This document shows positions 1 to 64,000 of a stretch of DNA of 64,000 nucleotides, in pieces. The notes under the pieces are model-generated. The model saw only the letters and a list, made by a program, of their open reading frames with translations. It was not told where the DNA came from and made no database searches. The stretch's first letter is position 1. Each line of letters opens with the position of its first letter. The translations under genes were made by a program, and so were the position numbers. Origin of the DNA: an uncultured Candidatus Saccharibacteria bacterium (GTDB lineage: Bacteria; Patescibacteriota; Minisyncoccia; Phycocordibacterales; CAYSCM01); the NCBI GenBank assembly GCA_964429815.1, contig CAYSCM010000001.1, forward strand, positions 164,240 to 228,239, read 5' to 3'.

Positions 1-938
1 ACAATAGGCCCCTTTAGCGAATATATAGTTCCTATTCTTTGCGGAAATTCTATAAGATCTTCCACTTCGAAACTTACTGTCTCGGCTTTATCGATTGAAC
101 CCTGTATCGAAGCTTTTTCCCTGGCAAGGTTTAATAACAATTCGGGCATTCCGGAAAAATGTCGAATATTGAATATTTCCGGCAAAAACCAACCGCGATG
201 GCTGCCGAGAGCCAAAAGATACCCCTTATCAGTGTATATGTCGCTGTTCTGTTTTTCTTTTTGTGTGAGCGGAATACGTAAATGACCCATAAGCGTAATT
301 TCGATTACGACAGTTTCAAGCTCACTAGGGCCTATAGGTTTAAAACGTGGATCTCGAGCAGCCATCATAGCCGCCGTGGCAACTGCTTGTCCGATTTCCT
401 TATTTTCTATGATGATGGAGCCGCGAAATTGTCCCTCAATCCAGAATGCTACATCAACATCATTACGTAAGTGTAGACGCGTAGATCTTTGTGGAAGAAT
501 AAATTTTTCATCTCCATTATTGACATAATGTGTAAGTGCATGCCGGGCAATCCTGAATAACTCCTTCTTTTCTTCATTTAATAAACCCCACCGTAATGGC
601 TGCGGTGAAACGTTTCGCTTTTTCGACTCACGTATCTGGATAGTTGGCGAGGAATATAGGATGGCCCACATTTCATCTACTTCCACGGATATCGGTGAAT
701 ATTCGATAATAAATGTTATAGAGTCTTTGGAAGGAGGTGGGGGGATTTCGATAGGATGGTCACCATACGTGAGCGGAAATGAAAAAGAAAAATATCTAAC
801 CTTCCCCTTCCCTCTTAAACAAAGGATGTCCTCTTTATTCGCCAATGTGCTAATAAAAAGAAAAGTTTCTTCAATTTGACGAGAAAAATGTTTGTTAAAA
901 AATCTCTTATGGGGGGTGAAAAAAAAACCCTTTCGCAT
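1..938 (-). CDS. AMMECR1-domain protein, 3' end cut by the window edge (start ATG 938, alternative ATG 671)
   Basis: Absent from the ORF track because it has no stop inside the window. Hand translation of the minus strand stays open from 938 to 1. It reads ...QFRGSIIIENKEIGQAVATAAMMAARDPRFKPIGPSELETVVIEITLM...KGYLLALGSHRGWFLPEIF..., matching AMMECR1 hallmarks (RGxI, DPRF, G-x-LP). The region is visibly AT-richer than its neighbours. Confidence 0.5.
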   Translation of the reverse strand, partial: MRKGFFFTPHKRFFNKHFSRQIEETFLFISTLANKEDILCLRGKGKVRYFSFSFPLTYGDHPIEIPPPPSKDSITFIIEYSPISVEVDEMWAILYSSPTIQIRESKKRNVSPQPLRWGLLNEEKKELFRIARHALTHYVNNGDEKFILPQRSTRLHLRNDVDVAFWIEGQFRGSIIIENKEIGQAVATAAMMAARDPRFKPIGPSELETVVIEITLMGHLRIPLTQKEKQNSDIYTDKGYLLALGSHRGWFLPEIFNIRHFSGMPELLLNLAREKASIQGSIDKAETVSFEVEDLIEFPQRIGTIYSLKGPI

Positions 939-1022
939 GATGAAGGCATCATAACACTCAGAAAATATCTGTAACAAAACTAGAAAAAAACGCTTTGCTC
1001 TGGTAGGATTCGACCACTATCT

Positions 1023-1094
1023 GCCCTCGTCGTTCAATGGATAGGACGCAAGCTTGCGGAGCTTGTAATGTCAGTTCGATTCTGGCCGAGGGCG
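1023..1094 (+). tRNA. tRNA-Arg, anticodon GCG
   Basis: 72-nt cloverleaf folded by hand. Acceptor GCCCTCG/CGAGGGC, D-stem GTTC/GGAC, anticodon stem CAAGC/GCTTG with loop TTGCGGA, T-arm GTCAG-TTCGATT-CTGGC, discriminator G. No encoded CCA. Confidence 0.85.
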
Positions 1095-1095
1095 C

Positions 1096-1252
1096 ACATA
1101 GGGATTTTTGCGCCCGGCCAAAATCGAACGGGAAGGGGTCGGGGAACGGGAGTTCCCCGGGAGGAAAGCAGAGCGAAGCTCGTCGGAAACCATGGGTTTC
1201 TGAAGAGCCACCCTGCGGCGAGTGAGATAGCGAAGCGTCTGGCCGAGGGCGC
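1096..1252 (+). repeat. tRNA-3'-linked structured element, copy A, including a terminal 15-nt direct repeat of the tRNA-Arg 3' end
   Basis: tctggccgagggcgc at 1081-1095 is repeated at 1238-1252. 1110-1129 (gcgcccggccaaaatcgaac) is an inverted copy of tRNA positions 1074-1095. The core (aatcgaacgggaaggggtcggggaacgggagttccccgggagg ... gagtgagatagcgaagcg) is homologous to 63117-63222. Confidence 0.6.
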
Positions 1253-1310
1253 CCATTTCCCAAGCGCCGCTTTTGTGGCATCATCCCGAGAGCTTAGTGA
1301 GGAGAGTTCG

Positions 1311-1913
1311 ATGCTCCGCAAAGCCGTCCCTATGGCGACGGCCGCTGGGCTCGTCGCACTTCTATCAGCCGCTGAACCCCTAGAGACCACCTACAAAACG
1401 CTGACCTACCGGACGTACCGCGTGGATCTTTCCGGTCGTGCAATGGCTCTTACCGAAGAGCGCTACGAGTTTGTGAGCCGCGACCTAAACGGAAGAACTC
1501 GACTGCGTCTCACGGTCCGAAAGCTCCCCGACGGAGAGATCCTCGAGAAAGACATCCCTGTAGTCACGACCCGCTTCGGCAACCTAGAGCGTCGCGGGGA
1601 GCTTCGGTGGAGCCCCTACCGCCCTCGCATCATCGAGCGTGAGTACGACACCCGCATCGACTACACGACTCGAATGGGAGCGCAAAAGATGGCTACCGGT
1701 CGATCATTCATGCTTTCGTATGGACTGCGCGAAGCCACCTACGCCGGGAAAATCTACAAGGCCTTCAAGGTGCGCTCCGACATTTTCGAAAATAACGGAT
1801 CAATGACGCGATACAAGTGCGTGTACGTGTTTGAACTTCGAACTATCGCTTTTTGTCGAGAACAGGGCACCGAAGCTGACATTGAAACCCGACTCGAAAA
1901 GGTTGAGAACTAA
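1311..1913 (+). CDS. secreted hypothetical protein (200 aa)
   Basis: Internal ATG of ORF 1068..1913, preceded by GGAGAG. The N-terminus MLRKAVPMATAAGLVALLSAAEP looks like a signal peptide. The upstream part of the tracked ORF overlaps the tRNA and element A and is not coding. Confidence 0.55.
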   Translation: MLRKAVPMATAAGLVALLSAAEPLETTYKTLTYRTYRVDLSGRAMALTEERYEFVSRDLNGRTRLRLTVRKLPDGEILEKDIPVVTTRFGNLERRGELRWSPYRPRIIEREYDTRIDYTTRMGAQKMATGRSFMLSYGLREATYAGKIYKAFKVRSDIFENNGSMTRYKCVYVFELRTIAFCREQGTEADIETRLEKVEN

Positions 1914-1992
1914 AAACCGCCCCTGGCTAAAACAAAATCTTCGATTTTGTTTGCCCGATCAGCGCAGCTGATCTAGGGAGGCGGTTTTTTCT
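1912..1992. terminator. bidirectional terminator built as a three-way junction
   Basis: The outer stem aaaaaccgcccct / agggaggcggttttt encloses two perfect hairpins: aaaacaaaatc-ttc-gattttgttt and gatcagc-gca-gctgatc. It has A-run and T-run flanks and lies between convergent genes. Confidence 0.55.
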
Positions 1993-2005
1993 TTATGTGG
2001 AGTTT

Positions 2006-2272
2006 TTATGTGGAGTTTTTGCGTACCAAGGCGACGAGGCGGCTCTTTTTGCGGGCAGCGGCACCCGCCTTAATGACGCCACGCTTGGCTGCTTTATCGA
2101 GGGCCTGGAAAGCCTCCGGGAGGAGTTTCAGAGCATCGGCAGCTTTTCCGACAGCGACAAGACGCCGGACCTCAGTCACGGCATCGTGCATCACGCGCTT
2201 GCGGCGCAGGTTGAAAACATACTTGCGCGAAGCATTGCGGATGGCCTTCTTGGCGTTCTTCGTAATCGGCAT
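2006..2272 (-). CDS. rpsT: 30S ribosomal protein S20
   Basis: MPITKNAKKAIRNASRKYVFNLRRKR... from the internal ATG at 2272 of ORF 2006..2308. Confidence 0.9.
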   Translation of the reverse strand: MPITKNAKKAIRNASRKYVFNLRRKRVMHDAVTEVRRLVAVGKAADALKLLPEAFQALDKAAKRGVIKAGAAARKKSRLVALVRKNST

Positions 2273-2346
2273 GGGGAGCACTGTAGCCGAAAACCCGCCA
2301 TGGCGCAACTACGCCGCAAGCGGGTTCTTTGCGGTATTATTGAGCC

Positions 2347-2925
2347 ATGATCGGCAGATTGCGCGGCACCGTTTCCGGAGGGACGGAGCGGGGCCTCATA
2401 CTCGACGTAGGAGGTGTTGGTTATCGCGTCCACACCAACCCCCAAAGCAGCGCAAAGTGGCGCAAGGAACGCGGTGAGATTGTGCTCTACACCCACCTCG
2501 CGGTCCGCGAGGATTCCCTCGACCTCTATGGGTTTGAGACCGAAGAAGAGCTTTCTTTCTTTGAACTTCTCCTCTCCGTCTCGGGGATTGGGCCCAGGTC
2601 GGCGCTCAGCATTCTCGCGGTTGGAGACATTGGCGCGCTGCGAAGGGCAATCGGCGCGGGCGACACCTCCTACCTCACCAAGATCTCCGGGATCGGCAAA
2701 AAAACCGCGGAGCGTATTATTCTTGATCTTCGCGATAAAGCCGGTGGCGGCTCGGCAGAAGAGGCGGCACAACTGCGCGGCGACGTTGATGTGCTCGAAG
2801 CGCTCCGGGCACTGGGGTATGCCGGCAAAGAGGCCCGAGACGCCGTGGTGAAGGTGAGTCGGGAAGGTATGGATACGAACCAAAAACTCAAGGCGGCCCT
2901 GCGCGAGCTCGGCTCCGGCGTATGA
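2347..2925 (+). CDS. ruvA: Holliday junction DNA helicase subunit RuvA
   Basis: MIGRLRGTV...LDVGGVGYRVH...GIGPRSALSIL...ISGIGKKTAERIILDL (HhH motifs). Confidence 0.9.
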   Translation: MIGRLRGTVSGGTERGLILDVGGVGYRVHTNPQSSAKWRKERGEIVLYTHLAVREDSLDLYGFETEEELSFFELLLSVSGIGPRSALSILAVGDIGALRRAIGAGDTSYLTKISGIGKKTAERIILDLRDKAGGGSAEEAAQLRGDVDVLEALRALGYAGKEARDAVVKVSREGMDTNQKLKAALRELGSGV

Positions 2926-4199
2926 GTATCGATTCTTTTCTCAACCTCATTCGACCTCTTATCCCGAAGCCGCTCTTTCGCTTGCTCATTTCTCCCTACC
3001 ACTTTCTTCTCGCGTACGCCGGCGCGCTGAAATATGGCTTTCCCTCAGGCTCTCTTGTCGTCATCGCGGTCACCGGAACGAAGGGAAAGACGAGCACCAC
3101 CGAGCTTCTCAATGCCATCCTGGAAGAGGGCGGCGAAAAAACCGCGCTCGCCAACACTATCCGTTTTAAAGTAGGTACCGATAGCCGTCGCAATCTTTTC
3201 AAAATGACGATGCCGGGGCGCTTTTTCCAACAGCGCTTCCTTGCGCAGGCACGCGACGCCGGGTGCCGCTACGCGATTATGGAAATGAGCTCCGAGGGTG
3301 CGCGCCAACATCGCCATCGTTTCATTGATCTCGATGCGCTTATTGTCACCAATCTTGCGCCGGAGCATATAGAATCCCACGGTTCCTTCGAAGCCTACCG
3401 CGCTGCGAAGCTTTCGATCGGGGTACAGCTTGCGGCCTCCCGCAAAAAGCGCCACCTGCTTGCTCTCAATGCCGATGACGAAAATCTACAACCGTTTTCC
3501 AAACTCCCCGGCGTCGAACTACTTCCCTACTCTCTCGGGAAAGTGGTGCCCTACCGCGGCGACGATTCCGGAAGTGCATTCACCCTCGAGGGTACGACTA
3601 TCCTTTCTAAACTCCCCGGTGTCTTTAACATCTACAACATGCTCGGCGCGGCGACACTCGGGCGCGCACTCGGCGTTCCGCTCGAAACCGTGAAGCACGC
3701 CCTTGAGCGTGTCGACACCATCGCCGGCCGTGCCGAGCGCATCGAAGAAGGTCAAACCTTTCCCGTCATTGTCGACTACGCTCACACACCCGAATCGCTG
3801 GAAGCTCTCTACAAAGCATTCGATGGCTATCGGCGCATCTGCGTGTTAGGAAATACCGGCGGCGGCCGCGACCGCTGGAAGAGACCAAAAATGGCCGCTA
3901 TTGCGGATTCCTACTGTGACGACATACTCCTCACCAACGAGGATCCCTACGATGAAAATCCGCGCGCTATTCTTGCGGATATGGAGAGCGGCATCACGAA
4001 GCGCACTCCGAAGATCGTACTCGATAGACGCGAAGCGATTGCGGAAGCACTTGCGCTCGCGAAAAGCGGCGGCGCGAAAAACGCGGTGCTCATTACCGGT
4101 AAAGGAACAGATCCCTACATCATGGAAGCTCATGGAAAAAAAACGCCCTGGAGCGACGCCAGCGTTACCCGCGAAGAACTTAAGAGGTTGCGCGCGTAG
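2922..4199 (+). CDS. Mur ligase family protein (MurE-like UDP-MurNAc-peptide ligase)
   Basis: P-loop VTGTKGKTSTTELL, DYAHTPESLEAL, NEDPYDENP. The N-terminal region is atypical and hydrophobic. ATGA overlap with ruvA. Confidence 0.7.
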   Translation: MSIDSFLNLIRPLIPKPLFRLLISPYHFLLAYAGALKYGFPSGSLVVIAVTGTKGKTSTTELLNAILEEGGEKTALANTIRFKVGTDSRRNLFKMTMPGRFFQQRFLAQARDAGCRYAIMEMSSEGARQHRHRFIDLDALIVTNLAPEHIESHGSFEAYRAAKLSIGVQLAASRKKRHLLALNADDENLQPFSKLPGVELLPYSLGKVVPYRGDDSGSAFTLEGTTILSKLPGVFNIYNMLGAATLGRALGVPLETVKHALERVDTIAGRAERIEEGQTFPVIVDYAHTPESLEALYKAFDGYRRICVLGNTGGGRDRWKRPKMAAIADSYCDDILLTNEDPYDENPRAILADMESGITKRTPKIVLDRREAIAEALALAKSGGAKNAVLITGKGTDPYIMEAHGKKTPWSDASVTREELKRLRA

Positions 4200-4223
4200 A
4201 GCCTCTGCGCGTAGCATAGATTC

Positions 4224-5174
4224 ATGGCAGAAGGAGGTGGTGGCAAAGGCGCGGGCAGCGATGCACTCTTTGTCATCATGGTGCTGGTCGTCCTCTTTAT
4301 CGTTTGGGCGGCAAGCGGTGGCATCGAGCGGGCCCGCCAAGACCCCGGCTACTTCTTGAAACCTCCAGCGCCGCTCGGCTCCGGCGAGGTCTACGGCAGC
4401 TCTCTGACGCAAGGAGTGCACCAAACCGGAGACGCCATTTCTCAGAGCCTCTCGCAAGCGCAAAGCGAGCTCGGCACAAACATTCCCGTTGGAACACTCT
4501 CTCCGTATCACGGTCTCGTCCATCTCACGACCATAAGCGGTGCAGGTAGCTTCGAGCCAGCGCAGGAATACGTCGAGATCGACTACAACGGGGAGGGTTC
4601 ACAATCTATACCCGTTACGGGATGGCGCATTGTAAGCGCGGTCAGTAATTTCTCCGCCGTACTCCCGCTTGGCACCCGTATCCCCAACTCCGGCGCGCTC
4701 TCCTACACGGAGCCCATATACCTGCGCCCGGGAGAACAGGCCTATATCGTGACCGGCCGCTCGCCCATCGGCTACTCGTTCCTCACCAACAAGTGCGTGC
4801 CATACTTCCAGCAGTTCCAGAACTTTTATCCGAGCCTCTTTAATTCCTGCCCCTACCCGACAGACGAGCTCCTGCGCTCACAAAACCAAGCCGTCCACAC
4901 CGACAACGCCTGCTACGACTTTGTCTCGACGCTTTCCTCTTGCCGGATCTATCTCACACCGCTTGACCCATCGCTCTCCGGAAGCTGCCAGAATTTCGTC
5001 GCTAACACGCTCACTTATACCGGCTGCGTGGAGAATCATCGCGCCGATGCCGACTTCTACGGGCACGACTGGCGAATCTACCTCAATCGTGACCAGTCGC
5101 TCTGGCGGGATCGTCGCGAAGTCATTAAACTCCTCGACCAGAACGGCCGCACGGTCGACGTGTTGACCTACTAA
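4224..5174 (+). CDS. membrane-anchored protein with a lamin-tail-like (LTD) domain and a Cys-rich C-terminus
   Basis: N-terminal TM segment LFVIMVLVVLFIVWAA. EYVEIDYNGEGSQSIPVTGWRIVS resembles the LTD signature. Confidence 0.45.
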   Translation: MAEGGGGKGAGSDALFVIMVLVVLFIVWAASGGIERARQDPGYFLKPPAPLGSGEVYGSSLTQGVHQTGDAISQSLSQAQSELGTNIPVGTLSPYHGLVHLTTISGAGSFEPAQEYVEIDYNGEGSQSIPVTGWRIVSAVSNFSAVLPLGTRIPNSGALSYTEPIYLRPGEQAYIVTGRSPIGYSFLTNKCVPYFQQFQNFYPSLFNSCPYPTDELLRSQNQAVHTDNACYDFVSTLSSCRIYLTPLDPSLSGSCQNFVANTLTYTGCVENHRADADFYGHDWRIYLNRDQSLWRDRREVIKLLDQNGRTVDVLTY

Positions 5175-5209
5175 CTTTGATTTACTACTTAAAGAGACCT
5201 AACGGACGC

Positions 5210-5247
5210 ATACTCAAATTCTAAGCTATAGCTTAGAATTTGAGTAT
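5210..5247. repeat. 38-nt perfect AT-rich palindrome, copy 1
   Basis: atactcaaattctaagcta|tagcttagaatttgagtat. A near-identical copy lies at 36497-36534. Confidence 0.85.
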
Positions 5248-5268
5248 CGAGAAAGCTATATTCTCTGG

Positions 5269-5748
5269 CTACACTCCCTGCACGTAAGCAAGAGCGATGC
5301 CCGCAGCGACGGAGACGTTGAGCGATTCTTTAGAACCTCGCATAGGGATTTCAGCGAGGACGTCGGCACCCTCGAGAAGGTTCTGACTGATTCCCTCGGT
5401 CTCGCTGCCGAGTATGAGGAGAATATGTTTGCCCTTTGGCAGAGCCGACACGGAGATCGAGCCGCTCCCCTGCTCGAGCGCGGCTATGAAAAAACCTTTC
5501 GCACGGTACGTGTCGATGACGGGGAGCCCCGCCTCGGTGTGCTCCCACTTCACCGTTTGTTCGGCGCCGAGGGAAACTTTGGCGAAATCCGCTCGAGCTC
5601 TTCCGAAGCGGTCGAGCGGAGTTGGTGTAGTGCCAACGCAGTAGATTCTTAAAACAGCAAAAGCATCTGCGGTGCGGAAAATTGAGCCGACGTTGTGGAC
5701 ACTTCGGATATTGTCGAGTATCAGCACGGTCTTTCGCCGTTGACTCAT
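5269..5748 (-). CDS. SpoU/TrmH-family RNA 2'-O-methyltransferase (159 aa)
   Basis: Internal ATG at 5748. NIRSVHNVGSIFRTADAF, ILGSETEGIS, IPMRGSKESLNVSVAAGIALA. Confidence 0.8.
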   Translation of the reverse strand: MSQRRKTVLILDNIRSVHNVGSIFRTADAFAVLRIYCVGTTPTPLDRFGRARADFAKVSLGAEQTVKWEHTEAGLPVIDTYRAKGFFIAALEQGSGSISVSALPKGKHILLILGSETEGISQNLLEGADVLAEIPMRGSKESLNVSVAAGIALAYVQGV

Positions 5749-6010
5749 GGGGGTTGGGCTAATAGTATCGAAAAAAGAGATCCTGAGGAGTTGGTAATGG
5801 CGAAGGGTGGGCGACGTAGCGACTGGCGCAATGGAAAACGAAAAGACCACGAGGAGTGTGAGAGGTTCAATCTCAAGCGTAAATCCTTTGAGCGTGGCTG
5901 CATCCGGTGCGGGCAAGGTCCCGTGGACCATACCCGCCGATGTGTACGATGTAAAACCCAAGAATCGAGGCCCGAATAGGGCCTCTTACTTTTTAGGGTA
6001 TACTTTTCCC

Positions 6011-7314: not shown

Positions 7315-7431
7315 ATGCAAGAAAGCCCTCAAAAGGAACAGGGGTTTTGGGATCGGTGGGGTACTCTGGTCTTCATCGGTCTACTCTTTGGGACCATGGC
7401 TGTAGTCGCGGCAAGCAAGCACTTCGCTTAG
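7315..7431 (+). CDS. 38-aa single-TM peptide (MQESPQKEQGFWDRWGTLVFIGLLFGTMAVVAASKHFA)
   Basis: Below the ORF-track cutoff. GAAGGAG Shine-Dalgarno. Upstream TTGCAA-16nt-TATCAT promoter-like site. Downstream hairpin ggcccc...ggggcc plus T-run. A paralog lies at 8285-8392. Confidence 0.5.
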   Translation: MQESPQKEQGFWDRWGTLVFIGLLFGTMAVVAASKHFA

Positions 7432-7482
7432 CGTCCCACGAACGGGCCCCGATGGTTTTTCATTGGGGCCTTTTCTTTTTCC

Positions 7483-7512
7483 TTAAATAGAAAGAATGAA
7501 ACGCTCAAGCGC
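7483..7512 (-). repeat. displaced copy of the holA-like 3' end (encodes ALERFILSI-stop)
   Basis: The minus strand reads gcg ctt gag cgt ttc att ctt tct att taa. Confidence 0.65.
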
Positions 7513-7546
7513 GAAAAAATAAGCCCCGCATACGCGGGGCTCGGGT

Positions 7547-8177
7547 TCAGCTTTGGCGTTCAAATTCTTCCTTAAGCGACCTGAGGAAGTTTGAACTTAT
7601 GATGGCCATCGAAACCATGAGGCCGTACAGGATGATGAAAGTTGTCACGGTCCAAAACGCTGACAGTGTTTTGCCAAAGATGGCCATCCATAGAAAATAG
7701 AAGGCCATCACAGCTACGAGACCACTGCCAATGTCAAGGTTGCGTAGCGTCAGTGGCCGGACCCGGTCGCATTCTTCGAAATATTTTGGTTCGCATTGCC
7801 CTCGTACGTAGAAGCGCGTGATGATCGCTATGACGGCTGAGGCGGTCATACTGATATACCACAGGGGTTCCTTGCCTATCAGCCAGCGCAATCGACACAT
7901 ACTCAAGGATTCCTAGCAGGTACGGAAAGACCGCGTCGAGAAAACTTGGTGTTTTCCTCATAATTATTAGCCACCAAGTATATTCAGTTACCACCAGAAG
8001 TATTGCAAGTATTGCGGTCATGCCTTCTAACATGAGAACTGTTGAGGTTGGCGATTCAGCTATTTTTAGTACGAGTCCACCAAGGGCGACACTTTGAATT
8101 ACGCCGATCGAACTGAGATAAGACCCTGCAAACATTTCCTCGGAACGTCTTCTGAATTCCGCTGCGTTTAAAGGCAT
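7547..8177 (-). pseudogene. frameshifted paralog of the 6569-7198 membrane protein (cassette 2)
   Basis: ORFs 7734..8177 and 7547..7906 together align with the intact paralog. The frame switches near 7881-7886 (ctggctgat). A single extra nucleotide explains it. An assembly error cannot be excluded. Confidence 0.6.
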
Positions 8178-61205: not shown

Positions 61206-62738
61206 CTAGGAAACGTGGTAGCGTCCGCGAATTTTTTTTATCTCCTCCCCTTCCGCCTCAGCCTTTTTCTCTTTACCGCTATCACCTAACTTTTTTAGTT
61301 CTGCTTCCGAAAGCTTCACTAATTCTTTCGAACGCGATTCAAGATACTCCGCTGAATTTTTTTTCGGGTCATCGAGTACTTCTTCCAAAAGTGCGTGCAG
61401 AACGAATCCTATTTTTGGCCCGGGCTTTTCATTCGTCACCTCCATTACCTTCACCCCATCGATTTTGAGCATGCCCACGGAGATCGGATCGCGCAACGCC
61501 TCCTCGACCATCGATTGATATTTACGAAATCGAAAGGGTTGTTCTTTCGGTCGGCCCGTGCCGATGCGATCACACACGCGCAGATTCATAAGATCCCAAA
61601 TATTTTCCGGTCCGACATTTCTAATGACGCGACGCACTGCGGAAAGTGTTATTTTTTCTGGATCGGAAAAAAACATGTGCCAACGAACAAGCTCCACAAC
61701 CTTACTGATGGTGTCGCTCGGAAAGCGCAGGTCGGTGAGGATTTTTTTAGTACGCTTCGCGCCAACTACGTCGTGGCCGTAAAAAGTCCAGTCTTTTTTT
61801 TCATCCGACCAGCGTCTCGTCTCCGGTTTAGCTATGTCGTGAAAAAGCCCCGCCAGGCGAAGATCGAGCGACCACCCTTTATCTGCCGCGTGCTGAAGGG
61901 TGCGTAAGTTATGCTCAAAAACGTCGAATTTGTGGGCTTGATTTTGATCTACCCCGATACCCTGCTCGAGCTCCCCCGCGATGAAGGGCAGGACCTTGAG
62001 TTTCTCTGCCAGCCAGAGACCTTGGGCGGGACTATCCGTTTGAAGAATGCGGACAAACTCGTCTCGAATACGCTCCTTCGATATCTTGGAGAGGCTTCTG
62101 GCACTTTGTTCTATGGCTGCCGCCGTCCTCTCTTCTAGAGAGAAGGTAAGGTCGGTCGCTATGCGAATAGCGCGAAGCATGCGAAGCGCATCCTCGGCGA
62201 AGCGGTCTGCTGGCTCTCCCACTGCACGAACGAGTTTCTTTTTAAGATCCACTTCCCCCTCAAAATGGTCGACAACCTCTCCGGTATGGGGGTTTAGCGC
62301 GAGTGCATTTATGGTGAAATCGCGGCGCTTGAGATCTTCTTCGAGTGTGGCACCAAATTCAACCGAATCAGGGCGGCGGGCATCCGAGTACTTCCCCTCC
62401 CGTCGGTATGGGGTTACCTCGATAACCTTCAGACGAAGGTCGACGGCCTCCTCGTTCACTACCCCCACTGTGCCGAATTCATTGGTGTAGAAGGTATTAG
62501 AAAACAACTTCTGTATTTCCTCGGGACGGGCATTCGTCGCCACGTCCCAATCTTTTGGTTCGCGTCCGAGGAGGAGGTCGCGTACGCAGCCACCGACGAT
62601 GTAGGCCTCAAAACCGGCCTTTTCTAGGGCTTCAGTGACAGCGAGCACCTCATGTGGGATGGAAACGTCGTGCGATTTTGGCACCCCTGCATTATACGTG
62701 TTTTCCCATAAGCTCACTTTGTCGTAGTATGGCCTCAC
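61206..62738 (-). CDS. cca: CCA-adding tRNA nucleotidyltransferase with HD domain and a charged C-terminal extension
   Basis: YIVGGCVRDLLLGREPKDWDVAT, RDFTINAL, HDIAKP. The GTG start abuts the divergent tRNA-Arg(TCG), so the exact start is uncertain. Confidence 0.85.
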   Translation of the reverse strand: MRPYYDKVSLWENTYNAGVPKSHDVSIPHEVLAVTEALEKAGFEAYIVGGCVRDLLLGREPKDWDVATNARPEEIQKLFSNTFYTNEFGTVGVVNEEAVDLRLKVIEVTPYRREGKYSDARRPDSVEFGATLEEDLKRRDFTINALALNPHTGEVVDHFEGEVDLKKKLVRAVGEPADRFAEDALRMLRAIRIATDLTFSLEERTAAAIEQSARSLSKISKERIRDEFVRILQTDSPAQGLWLAEKLKVLPFIAGELEQGIGVDQNQAHKFDVFEHNLRTLQHAADKGWSLDLRLAGLFHDIAKPETRRWSDEKKDWTFYGHDVVGAKRTKKILTDLRFPSDTISKVVELVRWHMFFSDPEKITLSAVRRVIRNVGPENIWDLMNLRVCDRIGTGRPKEQPFRFRKYQSMVEEALRDPISVGMLKIDGVKVMEVTNEKPGPKIGFVLHALLEEVLDDPKKNSAEYLESRSKELVKLSEAELKKLGDSGKEKKAEAEGEEIKKIRGRYHVS

Positions 62739-62739
62739 T

Positions 62740-62811
62740 GCCCCCGTGGTGAAATGGATATCACAACTGGCTTCGGACCAGTTATTGTGGGTTCGAGTCC
62801 TGCCGGGGGCG
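62740..62811 (+). tRNA. tRNA-Arg, anticodon TCG
   Basis: 72-nt cloverleaf. GCCCCCG/CGGGGGC, GTGA/TCAC, ACTGG-CTTCGGA-CCAGT, T-arm GTGGG-TTCGAGT-CCTGC, discriminator G. Confidence 0.85.
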
Positions 62812-63014
62812 CAAACGGCACAAAACGCGGTGCATTTTGCGCGTTTGCGCCAGGCGGAGCGATGTTTTGCGAGTACACAAAACCGTGAGCCGAGGCCGCG
62901 AAAATTCTGAGCGACGACGAAAAACTATTTTTGTGACCGCCTCGGCGTCGGGTGACAGATTCTAGATTGAGAAAGCACTGACGCGTGCTATAGTTTCCCC
63001 GAAGTATAAAGCAG

Positions 63015-63085
63015 GCGGCCATAGTTTAGTGGTAGGACGGATCCTTGCCAAGGATCAGGTGGGAGTTCGATTCTCCCTGGCCGCA
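63015..63085 (+). tRNA. tRNA-Gly, anticodon GCC
   Basis: 71-nt cloverleaf. GCGGCCA/TGGCCGC, GATCC-TTGCCAA-GGATC, T-arm GGGAG-TTCGATT-CTCCC, discriminator A. Upstream TTGAGA-16nt-TATAGT promoter-like site. Confidence 0.9.
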
Positions 63086-63088
63086 CAA

Positions 63089-63239
63089 AAGGACACTTCC
63101 CTACGGGGTCAGGGAGAATCGAACGGGAAGGGGTCGGGAAACGGCAGTTTCCCGCGGAGGCGGAGGAAGGCAGGCAAAGCCTCTGGAAAACCTGGGTTTC
63201 CAGAGAGTGAGATAGCGGGGCGTCTCCCTGGCCGCACAA
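63089..63239 (+). repeat. tRNA-3'-linked structured element, copy B, including a terminal 17-nt direct repeat of the tRNA-Gly 3' end
   Basis: tctccctggccgcacaa at 63072-63088 is repeated at 63223-63239. 63110-63124 (cagggagaatcgaac) is the exact reverse complement of tRNA positions 63065-63079. The core is homologous to 1122-1237. Confidence 0.6.
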
Positions 63240-63373
63240 TACGTAATAAACTTTTCTTACATGGCCTGTCTCATAGAAAACTCATAATTTGAGCGTTTCT
63301 GTGGATAAATCTGTGAGTATGTGTATTAAGGACAGTCCTATAACCAAAGAATGGCTTTAAATCCGTAAAAGTT

Positions 63374-63865: not shown

Positions 63866-63926
63866 GGGGCGTGGTGTAACGGCTAACATACCCGCGTGGG
63901 GAGCGGTTTTCCTTCGAGTTCTTCGT
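63866..63926 (+). pseudogene. decayed tRNA-Pro(GGG)-like fragment (intact 5' two thirds, no valid T-arm or acceptor 3' strand)
   Basis: 63866-63895 is identical to 63928-63957 of tRNA-Pro. The anticodon loop reads GTGGGGA. The downstream ttttccttcgagttcttcgtc cannot form a T-arm or acceptor stem. Confidence 0.6.
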
Positions 63927-63999
63927 CGGGGCGTGGTGTAACGGCTAACATACCCGCTTTGGGAGCGGGCGACTCCCGGTTCGAATCCGGGCGCCCCGA
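63927..63999 (+). tRNA. tRNA-Pro, anticodon TGG
   Basis: 73-nt cloverleaf. CGGGGCG/CGCCCCG (C1-G72), CCCGC-TTTGGGA-GCGGG, T-arm CCCGG-TTCGAAT-CCGGG, discriminator A. Ends one base before the window edge. Confidence 0.9.
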
Positions 64000-64000
64000 C

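Follow-up and report, generated by a model that had tools for sequence, protein, structure and literature searches.

In the 64-kb stretch of DNA analysed here (the window), the gene for tRNA-Arg(GCG) is followed by a short segment that begins with an inverted copy of the 3′ end of that tRNA and finishes with a direct one, raising the question whether this segment is a miniature element mobilised in trans, a co-transcribed ncRNA whose closing helix mimics an acceptor/T-stem, or the outcome of target-primed copying, the three readings offered in an earlier note on this DNA. The arrangement itself is borne out by gene calling, Rfam and repeat searches (Table 1). The 15-mer TCTGGCCGAGGGCGC is found exactly twice in the 64 kb, at 1081-1095 within the tRNA gene and at 1238-1252, with a chance expectation of 0.18 matches at up to two mismatches, and the repeat lengthens to 19 nt if one mismatch is allowed. 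The inverted copy reported earlier holds as well: 1074-1093 and 1110-1129 are complementary over 20 nt (85%, ungapped), and two mutually exclusive pairings are possible, 1074-1095 with 1110-1129 or 1110-1129 with 1238-1252. In the predicted fold, the closing helix P1 of this Arg copy extends over the discriminator and the next base, and GUGAGAU at 1222-1228 forms tandem G·A pairs opposite AAUCGAAC. Three open reading frames overlap the copy, at 958-1284(-), 1034-1390(-) and 1068-1913(+).

A second copy lies behind tRNA-Gly(GCC), where it carries the repeats of the Gly tRNA, a 17-nt direct repeat and an inverted repeat of its own, as had been noticed before. The core identity of about 90 percent claimed for the pair proved too high: alignment of the two copies including tRNA ends and flanks gives a column identity of 76%, the near-perfect match being confined to ~45 nt at the 5′ side and to GAGTGAGATAGCG, with indels between. 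The 18-mer CGAACGGGAAGGGGTCGG (1125-1142) is exact in both copies, and GAGTGAGATAGCG, which they also have in common, aligns with GUUCGAAU of other members of the family described below. A covariance-model search of the window returned exactly these two copies (1120-1189, E=1.7e-13; 63115-63190, E=4.7e-14; next match, E=0.07), and the window's tRNAs Lys, Arg-TCG and Pro are all three without the element. Only tRNAs passed threshold in the Rfam scan of the window, and a search of 1000-1300 and 62700-63300 against Rfam 15 at E<=10, covering families that include HDV-like, hammerhead, twister, hatchet, pistol, HEARO, IS605-orfB, tmRNA and Y RNA, gave only spurious miRNA/lncRNA matches below 21 bits.

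Table 1 Coordinates of the two element copies in the 64-kb window and of their partner tRNA genes (DR, direct repeat; IR, inverted repeat).
Feature	Position	Strand	Basis and remarks
tRNA-Arg(GCG), partner gene of copy 1	1023-1095	+	ARAGORN; Rfam tRNA, 57.1 bits; T-loop 1075-1081
DR1, copy 1: tRNA-Arg from the final T-loop base through the 3′ strands of T-stem and acceptor to the discriminator, plus one base	1081-1095	+	
Linker, 14 nt, without terminator or promoter	1096-1109	+	
IR, copy 1: reverse complement of the tRNA-Arg T-loop, T-stem 3′ strand and acceptor 3′ strand (2-nt gap); 5′ strand of closing helix P1	1110-1129	+	Repeat search
Junction GGGAAGGGGU, invariant in the family	1130-1139	+	
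Hairpin P2, CGGGGAAC-GGGA-GUUCCCCG	1140-1159	+	Covarying pairs, e.g. A-U to G-C between the window copies
Purine-rich joiner GGAGGAAAGC and small variable hairpin GAGC-GAA-GCUC	1160-1182	+	Alignment, fold; site of optional P3 insertions in the family
Hairpin P4, UCGGAAACC-AUG-GGUUUCUGA, one G·U pair	1183-1203	+	Fold; covariation across the family
Variable segment, T-loop remnant GUGAGAU (1222-1228) and GCGAAGC mini-hairpin (1230-1236)	1204-1237	+	
DR2, copy 1: repeat of the 3′ end of tRNA-Arg, forming the 3′ strand or tail of P1	1238-1252	+	
tRNA-Gly(GCC), partner gene of copy 2	63015-63086	+	ARAGORN, Rfam; promoter-like site at 62967-62994
DR1, copy 2: 17 nt, 2 nt past the called tRNA end at 63086	63072-63088	+	
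IR, copy 2: complementary to T-loop, T-stem and some of the acceptor of tRNA-Gly	about 63104-63124	+	
Core, copy 2: GGGAAGGGGU, P2 (63135-63154), joiner and small hairpin, P4 (63181-63205), GUGAGAU (63207-63213), GCGGGGC	63125-63222	+	Covariance model, fold, alignment
DR2, copy 2: identical to 63072-63088	63223-63239	+	

The two window copies belong to a larger family. Pattern scans, which demanded an exact 18-22-nt motif and therefore give a biased sample that underestimates both diversity and taxonomic range, yielded about 110 distinct copies, nearly all from CPR/Patescibacteria genomes and metagenomes, to which the family is so far specific; recovered were 24 true matches among 118 genome loci, and 110 metagenome loci. 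The CPR affiliation supposed in the earlier note fits this distribution, although one variant of the element (subtype B) is also carried by MAGs that bear the label 'Bdellovibrionales'. Many 18-mer matches in GC-rich genomes were chance matches in coding sequence and were discarded; among them is a ...TNGKGS... motif that is presumably FolC-like. Members have a median length of ~125 nt (range 73-249). The search for further copies proposed in the earlier note thus found many homologues, almost all placed 3′ of a tRNA and flanked by that tRNA's own 3′ end: a same-strand tRNA lies less than 110 nt upstream of at least 87 of the 106 unique, non-edge copies, and 31 anticodons are represented among these tRNAs. 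Of the remainder, one copy (L224) follows a tRNA that is split by a group I intron and was missed by the tRNA caller, and two others (L158 and L168) that follow uncalled tRNA-like 3′ ends may be similar cases. We found no description or family matching this tRNA-coupled element in the literature or in Rfam, in line with the earlier statement that none had been described, and we know of no precedent for its architecture.

Members share a common order. From 5′ to 3′ they comprise an arm complementary to the T-loop of the tRNA and the 3′ strand of its T-stem (and, in roughly one copy in three, to the acceptor 3′ strand too), the junction GGGAAGGGGU, P2, a purine-rich joiner, optional hairpins, the conserved P4 hairpin AAACC-GNG-GGUUU, a T-loop remnant (GUUCGAAU or GUGAGAU) and the copy of the tRNA 3′ end, and a motif of ~35 nt is invariant across CPR phyla. 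In the model alignment, 96.7% of the cells are paired and 10 of the 13 pairs show double-sided changes, and the observed covariation values were reached by none of 500 shuffled alignments. The outer stem of P4 displays 11 distinct fully compensatory combinations across the family, with covariation of the inner pairs too, while P2 is closed by GGGA, GGAA, GAAA or GGUA loops. Once bulged-A artefacts had been removed by eye, ~18 G·U pairs stood against ~4 A·C pairs, and the plus strand is the better folder in 20 of 25 copies. An RNA on the tRNA strand is what the compensatory changes, the GNRA loops and the excess of G·U together point to, and the compensatory changes and strand-specific G·U tolerance of the family are those of a structured ncRNA; the core, judged from the aligned copies, consists of two covarying hairpins on a conserved junction.

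Several other interpretations of the core were considered and set aside. A minus-strand gene converging on the tRNA had been prompted by linker terminators that look bidirectional and was rejected on the plus-strand-only GNRA loops of P2, the G·U excess and the plus-strand folding. Protein coding was dismissed too, the apparent conservation of minus-strand ORFs across loci arising because the nucleotide sequence is conserved. A G-quadruplex in GGGAAGGGGUCGGGAAACGGG would need a fourth G-run that is unconserved, because P2 loops include GGUA and GAAA, and the motifs of a CsrA-type GGA sponge, or of a Shine-Dalgarno site followed by a small ORF, vary across subtypes. HDV-like, hammerhead and other ribozyme folds were discarded for the absence of consistent pairing partners and of any Rfam signal.

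The arms tie each element to its own tRNA. The tRNA 3′ end is copied exactly over 12-27 nt at the element end in 73 of the 88 copies with an upstream tRNA, including the gene-encoded CCA where there is one, and the inverted repeat complements the local T-loop at all seven positions in 53 of 81 copies, following local T-loop variants such as GTTCAAAT. Complementarity to the T-stem is complete (5/5) in 35 of these 81 copies, against an expected 5, and reaches 4/5 in another 21. The acceptor is complemented at no fewer than five of seven positions in 24/81 (expected, 6.7), so that a full acceptor/T minihelix, the usual substrate of RNase P, RNase Z and the CCA enzyme, is often absent and mimicry of such a minihelix is not universal. 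Of the three earlier readings, the co-transcribed ncRNA is the best supported, with compensatory changes, GNRA loops and G·U bias on its side, but its acceptor/T-stem mimicry is complete only in the roughly one third of copies in which the acceptor is paired. At positions where the tRNA has G·U pairs, the inverted repeat is, family-wide, the Watson-Crick complement of the tRNA 3′ strand and not a copy of the 5′ strand (12 versus 1), a result that excludes its origin as a copy of the tRNA 5′ acceptor and T-stem strands, as in a tRNA duplicate with an internal deletion.

Comparison of related loci indicates that both arms keep pace with the tRNA. In 11 related same-anticodon pairs whose tRNA 3′ ends differ, each DR2 agrees with its own tRNA, and in L012/L119, the sole pair compared for the inverted repeat, this arm tracks its own tRNA as well. 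At the tRNA-Leu(GAG) loci DR2 tracks five tRNA differences, and between L124 and L203, whose cores are 93% identical, it does so even at an unpaired acceptor position. Both arms have their inner boundary fixed within the T-loop and a variable outer one, and the direct copy sometimes overruns into the linker, the inverted repeat and even the first 15 nt of the core (63 nt in L174, 43 nt in L205 and 32 nt in L190). Because the repeats follow tRNA substitutions that postdate insertion, they are not the fossil scar of an att site or of a target-site duplication; arm identity at unpaired positions could, as an alternative to re-copying from the tRNA, stem from a functional need for the exact tRNA 3′ end or from cycles of excision and reintegration. 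Fold-back copying was also considered as the source of the linker palindromes, the long perfect ones being enriched only 2.5-fold (28% versus 11%), and was rejected since these also occur behind tRNAs without an element; the palindromes are probably native terminators.

Taken together, these observations lead us to favour, tentatively and at somewhat less than even confidence, a model in which the element is an RNA gene on the tRNA strand that occupies a tRNA-like slot and whose arms are repeatedly re-copied from the neighbouring tRNA. The element would be transcribed with or just after its tRNA, and would be co-transcribed with it in the window; the rod into which its tRNA-derived 5′ and 3′ arms close the fold would resemble the T-stem, in some cases the acceptor stem too, and would terminate like the 3′ end of a pre-tRNA. 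By virtue of such a rod the element would fill a tRNA-like slot and be released and trimmed by the tRNA-maturation machinery, namely by RNase P through its action on the tRNA that follows, by RNase Z or exonucleases, and by the CCA enzyme. The conserved three-way-junction core would be the functional part. The arms would be held identical to the adjacent tRNA through recurrent re-copying, for which the most economical mechanism may be template switching during replication, or short-tract gene conversion, that starts from the T-loop sequences at the inner edges of both arms; the TTCGAA of the T-loop is palindromic and can thus seed direct and inverted copying alike. A relocated copy would adopt the arms of its new tRNA by the same process, and the family would undergo gain and loss over evolutionary time with mostly vertical inheritance. 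From sequence we infer the transcription, processing and trans function of the element, as well as template-switch conversion, the latter from its putative products.

Direct repeats that run from the T-loop to, or slightly past, the tRNA 3′ end are the classical signature of tRNA-targeting integrases, and the main rival to our model is a miniature non-autonomous integrative element of ~150-250 nt that enters the region between T-loop and tRNA 3′ end by site-specific recombination in trans, with a tyrosine recombinase, Xer-like or other, as one conceivable catalyst. In that case the two direct repeats would be attL and attR, and the inverted repeat together with DR2 would form, perhaps in single-stranded DNA, a hairpin attP mimicking the target duplex in the manner of CTXphi attP(+) or integron attC. 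The T-loop-to-3′-end repeat in 73/88 copies speaks for this idea, and the order DR1, short linker, inverted repeat, loop of ~100 nt and DR2 would fit single-strand integration of a folded hairpin site. A XerC/D-like recombinase gene, the sole recombinase seen, lies ~4 kb from the Gly locus in the window genome; no integrase, however, lies in or beside the element, none of 25 loci has a linked recombinase, and viral contigs, phage records and plasmid records hold no element matches, for which reason an origin in phages, plasmids or viruses was rejected as well. A matching attP with both arms would moreover be needed for at least 31 tRNAs. When read by eye, the inner ends of the hairpin formed by the inverted repeat and DR2 are T-loop sequence (ATTCGAAC/GTTCGAAT or GAGA variants), and they fit neither the integron R and L boxes (GTTRRRY/RYYYAAC) nor the dif consensus.

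The history of individual loci bears on the same question. An orthologous empty site (L160, occupied in L134) and arrays are in agreement with integration: at L123 the same tRNA 3′ end comes after each of two different cores, three direct repeats are found at L190, and at L162 an orphan tRNA-Trp 3′ fragment and a second element lie past an intervening gene, and there are chimeric copies (L034, L210). L056 on the one side and L156/L004 on the other differ reciprocally in where the element is present, which is in line with the vertical inheritance with gain and loss of our model. Yet L160 also lacks the 45 nt found after DR2 in L134 and is therefore not the product of a precise excision between DR1 and DR2. 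Copies compared within one genome are not near-identical, the element is kept at syntenic loci of 70-85% identity, and the repeats follow later tRNA substitutions; covariation, G·U bias and GNRA loops would also be unexpected of a mere DNA site. Hence the trans-mobilised miniature element proposed earlier retains the empty site and the tandem or partial duplicates in its support but is not favoured, and we regard integration as an unlikely explanation, albeit the most serious of the competitors. Strain-level empty sites in the source population were sought and set aside, the same-sample contigs being 100% identical. Target-primed copying, the third earlier proposal, gained no direct support: as in a SINE-like process, repeat length varies around a fixed inner end, yet the repeats track the tRNA after insertion. 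No reverse transcriptase was found in the flanks of 25 loci, and a published survey describes Patescibacteria as lacking group II introns (PMC13011429).

Our model of an RNA gene with re-copied arms also has to be weighed against a purely cis-acting role, in which the element would be a tRNA 3′ trailer that acts as an insulator for the upstream tRNA transcript, governs its stability or processing, or switches it between alternative pairings of the inverted repeat, with DR2 or with the 3′ end of the tRNA itself, and that yields no independent RNA product. In agreement with such a role, the element lies on the tRNA strand and near the tRNA, its segments a, a′, a permit mutually exclusive pairings, the core is fused straight to the tRNA end in L126 and L171, and there is no conserved downstream gene. 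In the window neither a terminator nor a promoter separates tRNA and element, no -10-like hexamer precedes the core and no terminator-like hairpin follows DR2; elsewhere elements lie between tRNAs in clusters, a context in keeping with the co-transcription suggested earlier and with the tRNA-like slot of our model. One locus (L049) has the order tRNA-Gln, element, 2 nt, tRNA-Glu, element, and the next tRNA begins 0-30 nt past DR2 in 7 of 72 elements. Terminator-like hairpins follow DR2 in 23/70 loci. On the other hand, a terminator-like hairpin intervenes between tRNA and element in 43% of the loci (31/72), which, along with a -10-like hexamer that precedes the inverted repeat, 14-26 nt ahead of the core, in only one locus in three (33/104), implies that the mode of expression is not uniform. 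The element is found behind only about one third of the tRNAs even in element-positive loci (83/226), solo copies without a tRNA occur, and the invariance of the ~35-nt motif across CPR phyla speaks for a specific molecular partner and against a generic structure. We thus consider a trailer acting only in cis to be improbable.

Retention of the identity between DR2 and tRNA where it is unpaired within the element (L124/L203) makes it tempting to consider that the RNA acts on the tRNA itself. As a tRNA-directed guide or ribozyme, it would bind the T-loop and T-stem of its cognate tRNA with the 5′ antisense arm, its core would catalyse a reaction or recruit an enzyme, and its 3′ arm would provide a spare tRNA 3′ end or a tail resembling an RNase-P external guide. 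Its task could be to repair or replace damaged tRNA 3′ ends or to target the tRNA 5′ strand. Engineered trans-splicing ribozymes likewise join an antisense guide to a structured core and a replacement 3′ segment, a resemblance of layout only, and the 3′ tail of the element, being the acceptor 3′ strand, is complementary to the tRNA 5′ acceptor strand. Against this stand the lack of likeness to any known ribozyme or guide-RNA family at permissive Rfam thresholds, the fact that the arms mostly pair with each other, and the flanks of 25 loci, in which no associated protein was found: within ±5 kb they share no protein family and no conserved neighbouring or downstream gene. That such tRNA-specific trans RNAs repair, replace or quality-control tRNA 3′ ends, or act like RNase-P guides, in these minimal genomes, each genome keeping the spare 3′ end current by copying it from the tRNA gene, is in our judgement very improbable.

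Fainter still is the case for descent from a palindrome-associated element of the IS200/IS605 type (HUH transposase) or for an orphan TnpB/IscB guide RNA, in which the core would be the scaffold, the flanking tRNA 3′ end the guide and the T-loop the target-adjacent motif. Right-end guide RNAs consist of a scaffold followed by a guide identical to the sequence beside a short motif, and the scaffold of ~110 nt followed by ~16 nt identical to the sequence beside the T-loop is reminiscent of them, as are the subterminal hairpins. The Rfam IS605-orfB and HEARO models, however, do not match, none of the 25 loci has tnpA, tnpB or iscB in its flanks, and the upstream tRNA is intact and has its own copy of the segment, so that we find this origin scarcely credible.

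The family has a bearing beyond the window. CPR/Patescibacteria make up a large share of bacterial diversity and have tiny genomes, and a conserved non-coding element that follows about one in three tRNA genes of the element-containing loci sampled from such genomes is unlikely to be neutral. The covariance model gives annotators a marker of CPR tRNA loci and accounts for spurious ORF calls there, and should the RNA act on its cognate tRNA, it would open a new chapter in tRNA maintenance. A family of tRNA-coupled RNAs with arms that co-evolve with the neighbouring gene is without precedent known to us.

Among known systems, tRNA-targeting integrative elements and CIMEs are similar in lying directly 3′ of tRNA genes, in direct repeats that run from the T-loop to or past the tRNA end, in tandem accretion at one tRNA and in the use of many kinds of tRNA. 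The family differs from them in its length of ~125 nt, the lack of a nearby integrase, an extra inverted copy of the tRNA end and a conserved core with an RNA fold, and in that one family is found on at least 31 tRNA species with repeats that keep tracking tRNA substitutions. CTXphi attP(+) and integron attC share with it the repeat order expected from hairpin-site integration and a stem that imitates the target duplex, whereas the family has no Xer/dif or IntI-type core sequences and no demonstrated link to a recombinase, and its loop is conserved, covarying and G·U-biased; were it nonetheless a trans-mobilised hairpin element, we would know of no smaller mobile element that targets tRNA genes, and a folded att site would be put to a new use. 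HDV-like 'theta' ribozymes, which occur downstream of phage tRNAs, are likewise small structured RNAs immediately 3′ of tRNA genes, but in our family no nested double pseudoknot can be drawn, GGGAAGG has no C-rich partner, no Rfam ribozyme matches, and terminators often separate tRNA and element.

Also comparable are the t-elements of plant mitochondria, mascRNA from MALAT1, viral TLS and the tRNA-like domain of tmRNA, with which the family has in common an acceptor/T-arm-like helix on a non-tRNA RNA, a pre-tRNA-like 3′ end and a placement among tRNAs by which RNase P, RNase Z or the CCA enzyme could define the ends. In contrast to these signals, the 3′ strand is here an exact, continuously updated copy of that of the adjacent tRNA, to which the 5′ strand is complementary by Watson-Crick pairing as far as the T-loop, while a three-way-junction core replaces the T-loop and acceptor pairing is often missing. 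Finally, template-switch mutagenesis and short-tract conversion would explain the concerted inverted and direct copies, their variable outer ends and the overshoots. Template switching is a known mutational process rather than an element, and the role in maintaining an RNA gene family that we suggest for it has, to our knowledge, not been described; if switching seeded at the T-loop does operate at these loci, CPR bacteria would possess a natural gene family that re-programmes part of its own sequence from its neighbour.

Each of the two elements in the window is bracketed by copies of the tRNA gene that it follows (table): an inverted copy (IR) of the tRNA's 3' part opens it, and a direct copy (DR2) of the tRNA's own 3' end (DR1) closes it. 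This is the arrangement that the earlier note had read at tRNA-Arg(GCG) and, with that tRNA's own repeats, at tRNA-Gly(GCC), and it was found at both loci. For TCTGGCCGAGGGCGC, the direct repeat at tRNA-Arg, 0.18 matches with at most two mismatches would be expected in the window, and the repeat can be extended to 19 nt with one mismatch. Both elements contain CGAACGGGAAGGGGTCGG and GAGTGAGATAGCG exactly, while their overall identity in an alignment with indels is 76%; the core identity of about 90% in the note therefore applies to the conserved blocks only. A covariance model matched these two copies and no others in the window. The GC content rises from 40% (1-1000) to 56-59% (1001-6000) exactly at the tRNA-Arg/element locus, and on the low-GC side lies the N-terminal coding region of a 616-aa AMMECR1-domain protein, adjoining a YcaO gene. 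Near the other end, the intact tRNA-Pro(UGG) is preceded, at a distance of about 20 nt, by a partial copy that has no T-arm and differs at two anticodon-loop positions (TTTGGG to GTGGGG), apparently a truncated tRNA-Pro pseudogene or a partial tandem duplication.

Positions of elements, tRNAs and neighboring features in the window and in numbered loci (L) retrieved by pattern scans
Sequence	Feature	Position	Remark
Window	tRNA-Arg(GCG), partner of copy 1	1023-1095	ARAGORN and Rfam
Window	Direct repeat, copy 1 (15-mer TCTGGCCGAGGGCGC)	1081-1095 and 1238-1252	exact; only these two in the 64-kb window
Window	Inverted copy, copy 1	1110-1129	reverse complement of 1074-1093, 85% ungapped
Window	Mini-hairpins, GCGAAGC type (examples)	1173-1179, 1230-1236	
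Window	CCA-adding enzyme/poly(A) polymerase-family gene	61206-62738 (-)	PolyA_pol and HD
Window	Promoter-like site of tRNA-Gly	62967-62994	good
Window	tRNA-Gly(GCC), partner of copy 2	63015-63086	
Window	Direct repeat, copy 2	63072-63088 = 63223-63239	17 nt, from tRNA-Gly's own sequence
Window	Inverted copy, copy 2	~63104-63124	from tRNA-Gly's own sequence
Window	Duplicate of tRNA-Pro(UGG) 5' part	63866-63906	41 nt, near-exact
Window	tRNA-Pro(UGG), intact	63927-64000	
L123	Second, distinct core	~830-1130 (-)	
L153	LOOT RNA	2545-2660	RF03000
L162	Two tRNA-Trp 3' ends with elements	1625 to 540 (-)	
L224	Group I intron splitting a tRNA gene	7360-7562	Rfam hit

The further copies that the earlier note had proposed to look for are numerous. 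When one genome per species was scanned for an exact pattern, 118 loci emerged, comprising 24 true homologues (plus the variant L019) and 94 chance matches, many of the latter inside coding sequence of GC-rich genomes; a stricter pattern gave 110 loci in metagenomes and none in viral contigs, and phage and plasmid collections held no match to the element. The homologues come from Saccharibacteria, Parcubacteria-group lineages, Berkelbacteria, Moranbacteria and Uhrbacteria, and the element also occurs in five MAGs deposited under the label Bdellovibrionales. These five (L010, L012, L060, L076 and L082, 'uncultured Bdellovibrionales' from one assembly project) are all the genome hits of subtype B; either the family extends beyond the CPR or the labels are unreliable. 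As every search demanded an exact motif, the sample understates both the diversity of the family and its range of hosts. The 18-mer CGAACGGGAAGGGGTCGG also recurs by chance in GC-rich genomes (L001, L006, L011, L017 and others), mostly as ACGAACGGGAAGGGGTCGGT, encoding a ...TNGKGS... motif that by eye we take to resemble the FolC/Mur-ligase P-loop, a caution for pattern-based searches.

A same-strand tRNA ends less than 110 nt upstream of 87 of the 106 evaluable, de-duplicated copies; 31 anticodons are represented, and within positive loci 83 of 226 tRNA genes are followed by an element. In 73/88 copies the end of the element reproduces the upstream tRNA 3' end exactly over 12 nt or more (median 16 nt). 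This stretch starts at the T-loop's 3' edge, 14-20 nt short of the tRNA end, and stops at a variable point, from -1 to more than +8. The expectation that every copy lies directly 3' of a tRNA and is flanked by that tRNA's end thus holds broadly but not universally: a few copies are solo, and some (such as L034 and L210) carry mismatched ends. For several copies without a called tRNA, the caller may have missed it. In L224 the element follows the 3' exon of an intron-split tRNA gene uncalled by ARAGORN, and elements are therefore linked to intron-containing tRNAs too; L158 and L168 may be similar cases: a tRNA-like 3' end precedes the element there, with neither a called tRNA nor an Rfam hit. 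The LOOT RNA on the same contig as an element in L153 is apparently unrelated.

These copies form a family of plus-strand structured RNAs coupled physically and evolutionarily to tRNA 3' ends. In a model-based alignment of 119 copies, paired cells amount to 96.7% and both-sided changes occur in 10 of 13 pairs, values attained in 0/500 shuffles, and the outer stem of hairpin P4 shows 11 distinct fully compensatory 4-bp combinations. On the plus strand the P2 hairpin loops read GGGA, GGAA, GAAA or GGUA. With stem finding that allowed G·U and A·C alike, G·U outnumbers A·C by about 18 to about 4 once bulged-A artefacts in P4 are set aside by eye, and the plus strand gives the more stable fold in 20/25 copies. 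Covariation, GNRA loops, G·U excess and fold stability together lead us to reject a minus-strand gene, a candidate prompted by the bidirectional-terminator look of many linkers between tRNA and IR.

Minimal members (e.g. L077, L025) form a three-way junction: the closing helix P1, made of IR and DR2; an invariant joiner, GGGAAGGGGU, after its 5' strand; hairpin P2, CGGGAAAC-GNRA-GUUUCCCG; a second joiner, UGGAGGAAGG; hairpin P4 with a conserved AAACC-GNG-GGUUU centre; and a short joiner back to P1. Larger members carry extra hairpins at two points, past the second joiner and past P4, and there are at least three subtypes. Both strands of inner P1 derive from the T-loop, the 5' strand being AUUCGAAC or NGAGAAC and the 3' strand GUUCGAAU, GUGAGAU or GCUCGAAAU, with pairing by eye that is Watson-Crick or tandem G·A. 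Outward from there, the IR is complementary to the local T-loop at 7/7 positions in 53 of 81 copies; its complementarity to the T-stem 3' strand is 5/5 in 35 (expected 5) and 4/5 in 21 (expected 22), and to the acceptor 3' strand 5/7 or better in only 24 (expected 6.7). At informative G·U positions it follows the complement of the tRNA 3' strand 12 times and the 5' strands once, and is therefore not derived from the latter. The mini-hairpin GCGAAGC (variants GCGCAGC, GCGGAGC) is strikingly frequent within and just 3' of elements. Between tRNA-Met and a standard element, L123 carries in tandem a second core, GCCGGAACGAUG-hairpin-...GGCGAAGCC, within the same bracket of IR and copied tRNA 3' end, which suggests a wider superfamily; this may include the weaker model hits in L155, L162, L187, L132, L188, L171, L120 and L049.

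The elements persist vertically, with occasional gain and loss and no autonomous machinery nearby. Syntenic loci at about 70-85% nucleotide identity keep the element at the same tRNA. The search for empty sites advised in the earlier note found one: in L160 the next gene directly follows tRNA-Leu(UAG), whereas in the orthologous L134, where the tRNA is 100% identical and the flanks are about 75-78% identical, a linker, IR, core, DR2 and 45-nt tail are inserted. Two tRNA-Ser genes show reciprocal presence and absence (L056 vs L156/L004). Such an empty site, the repeats running from T-loop to 3' end, the DR-linker-IR-loop-DR topology and the arrays would all be explained by a miniature integrative element that is mobilised in trans and whose att site folds into a hairpin. 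We nevertheless consider this unlikely: it leaves the RNA-type constraints unexplained, has no recombinase link, needs more than 30 matched attP versions, meets an imprecise L160/L134 difference and does not account for how arms track later tRNA substitutions. Eleven pairs of related copies share an anticodon, are 75-93% identical in the variable core part and have tRNA 3' ends that are 1-8 substitutions apart; in each, DR2 equals its own tRNA, and the repeats are therefore not the decaying scar of a single old insertion. The IR does likewise in L012/L119, the one pair compared for it; DR2 tracks five tRNA differences at tRNA-Leu(GAG) loci and, in L124 vs L203, a position unpaired within the element. 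A derivative of IS200/IS605 or of a guide RNA is hardly credible, having failed both the Rfam test and the gene-content test; the element has no Rfam match even at E<=10, and no protein family common to the flanks was found within 5 kb on either side of 25 loci.

The inner end of each arm is fixed in the T-loop and the outer one varies, and the direct copy can overshoot into linker, IR and even 15 nt of core (L174, 63 nt; L205, 43 nt; L190, 32 nt). In L034 the arms match each other but differ from the tRNA upstream, L210 bears a different tRNA's 3' end, and L087 is truncated. L162 is an island-like arrangement between tRNA 3' ends, in which tRNA-Trp and a variant element are followed by a gene for a membrane protein (about 800 nt) and then by an orphan tRNA-Trp fragment, spanning T-arm to 3' end, with a second element. 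These exceptions are consistent with relocation, or with recombination between copies.

In both window copies neither terminator nor promoter separates tRNA and element, and tRNA-Gly has a promoter-like site, so that the simplest reading is that the two would be co-transcribed. Across the family the context varies: a terminator-like hairpin lies in 31/72 linkers and after the element in 23/70, and in about a third of copies a -10-like hexamer (often TATGAT) lies 14-26 nt before the core. Intervening terminators, solo copies and the invariant motif make a purely cis-acting trailer or switch quite improbable. DR2 contains CCA where the tRNA gene encodes it, the next tRNA starts 0-30 nt past DR2 in 7/72 cases, and L049 has the order tRNA-Gln, element, 2 nt, tRNA-Glu, element; from this context, the element sits in a tRNA-like slot of tRNA clusters. 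In the window, the CCA-adding enzyme/poly(A) polymerase-family gene abuts the tRNA-Arg(UCG)/tRNA-Gly/element cluster, whose tRNA genes lack encoded CCA, which may be coincidence.

Our best explanation overall, held tentatively, is a tRNA-coupled plus-strand RNA with arms recurrently re-copied from the tRNA. In this model, the RNA would be made together with its tRNA or just after, its tRNA-derived arms would close it on itself, tRNA-maturation enzymes would set its ends, and the invariant junction core would act on a partner. Recurrent short-tract copying, seeded at T-loop sequences flanking the core, would keep the arms identical to the tRNA. TTCGAA is palindromic, and one microhomology can therefore seed direct and inverted template switches. 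Such copying would explain why the arms have a fixed boundary inside and a variable one outside, why some copies overshoot, why even unpaired positions follow the tRNA, and how one family can serve more than 30 different tRNAs without carrying information on its targets. That the element is instead a tRNA-directed guide or ribozyme with a spare tRNA 3' end seems to us very improbable.

The earlier note knew of no family with this architecture, and none was found in Rfam or in the literature, searched by topic and by sequence; the one related paper, about group I introns in tRNAs of Patescibacteria, treats anticodon-loop introns only (PMC13011429). Single features are shared with tRNA-targeting islands and CIMEs, with folded att sites (CTXphi, integron attC), with tRNA-like processing signals (t-elements, mascRNA, TLS, the tRNA-like domain of tmRNA) and with template-switch mutagenesis, but the element lacks the full defining set of each. 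Because it matches none of these systems and no published description that we found, we rate it a new kind of tRNA-coupled RNA element, whose function and copying mechanism we infer.
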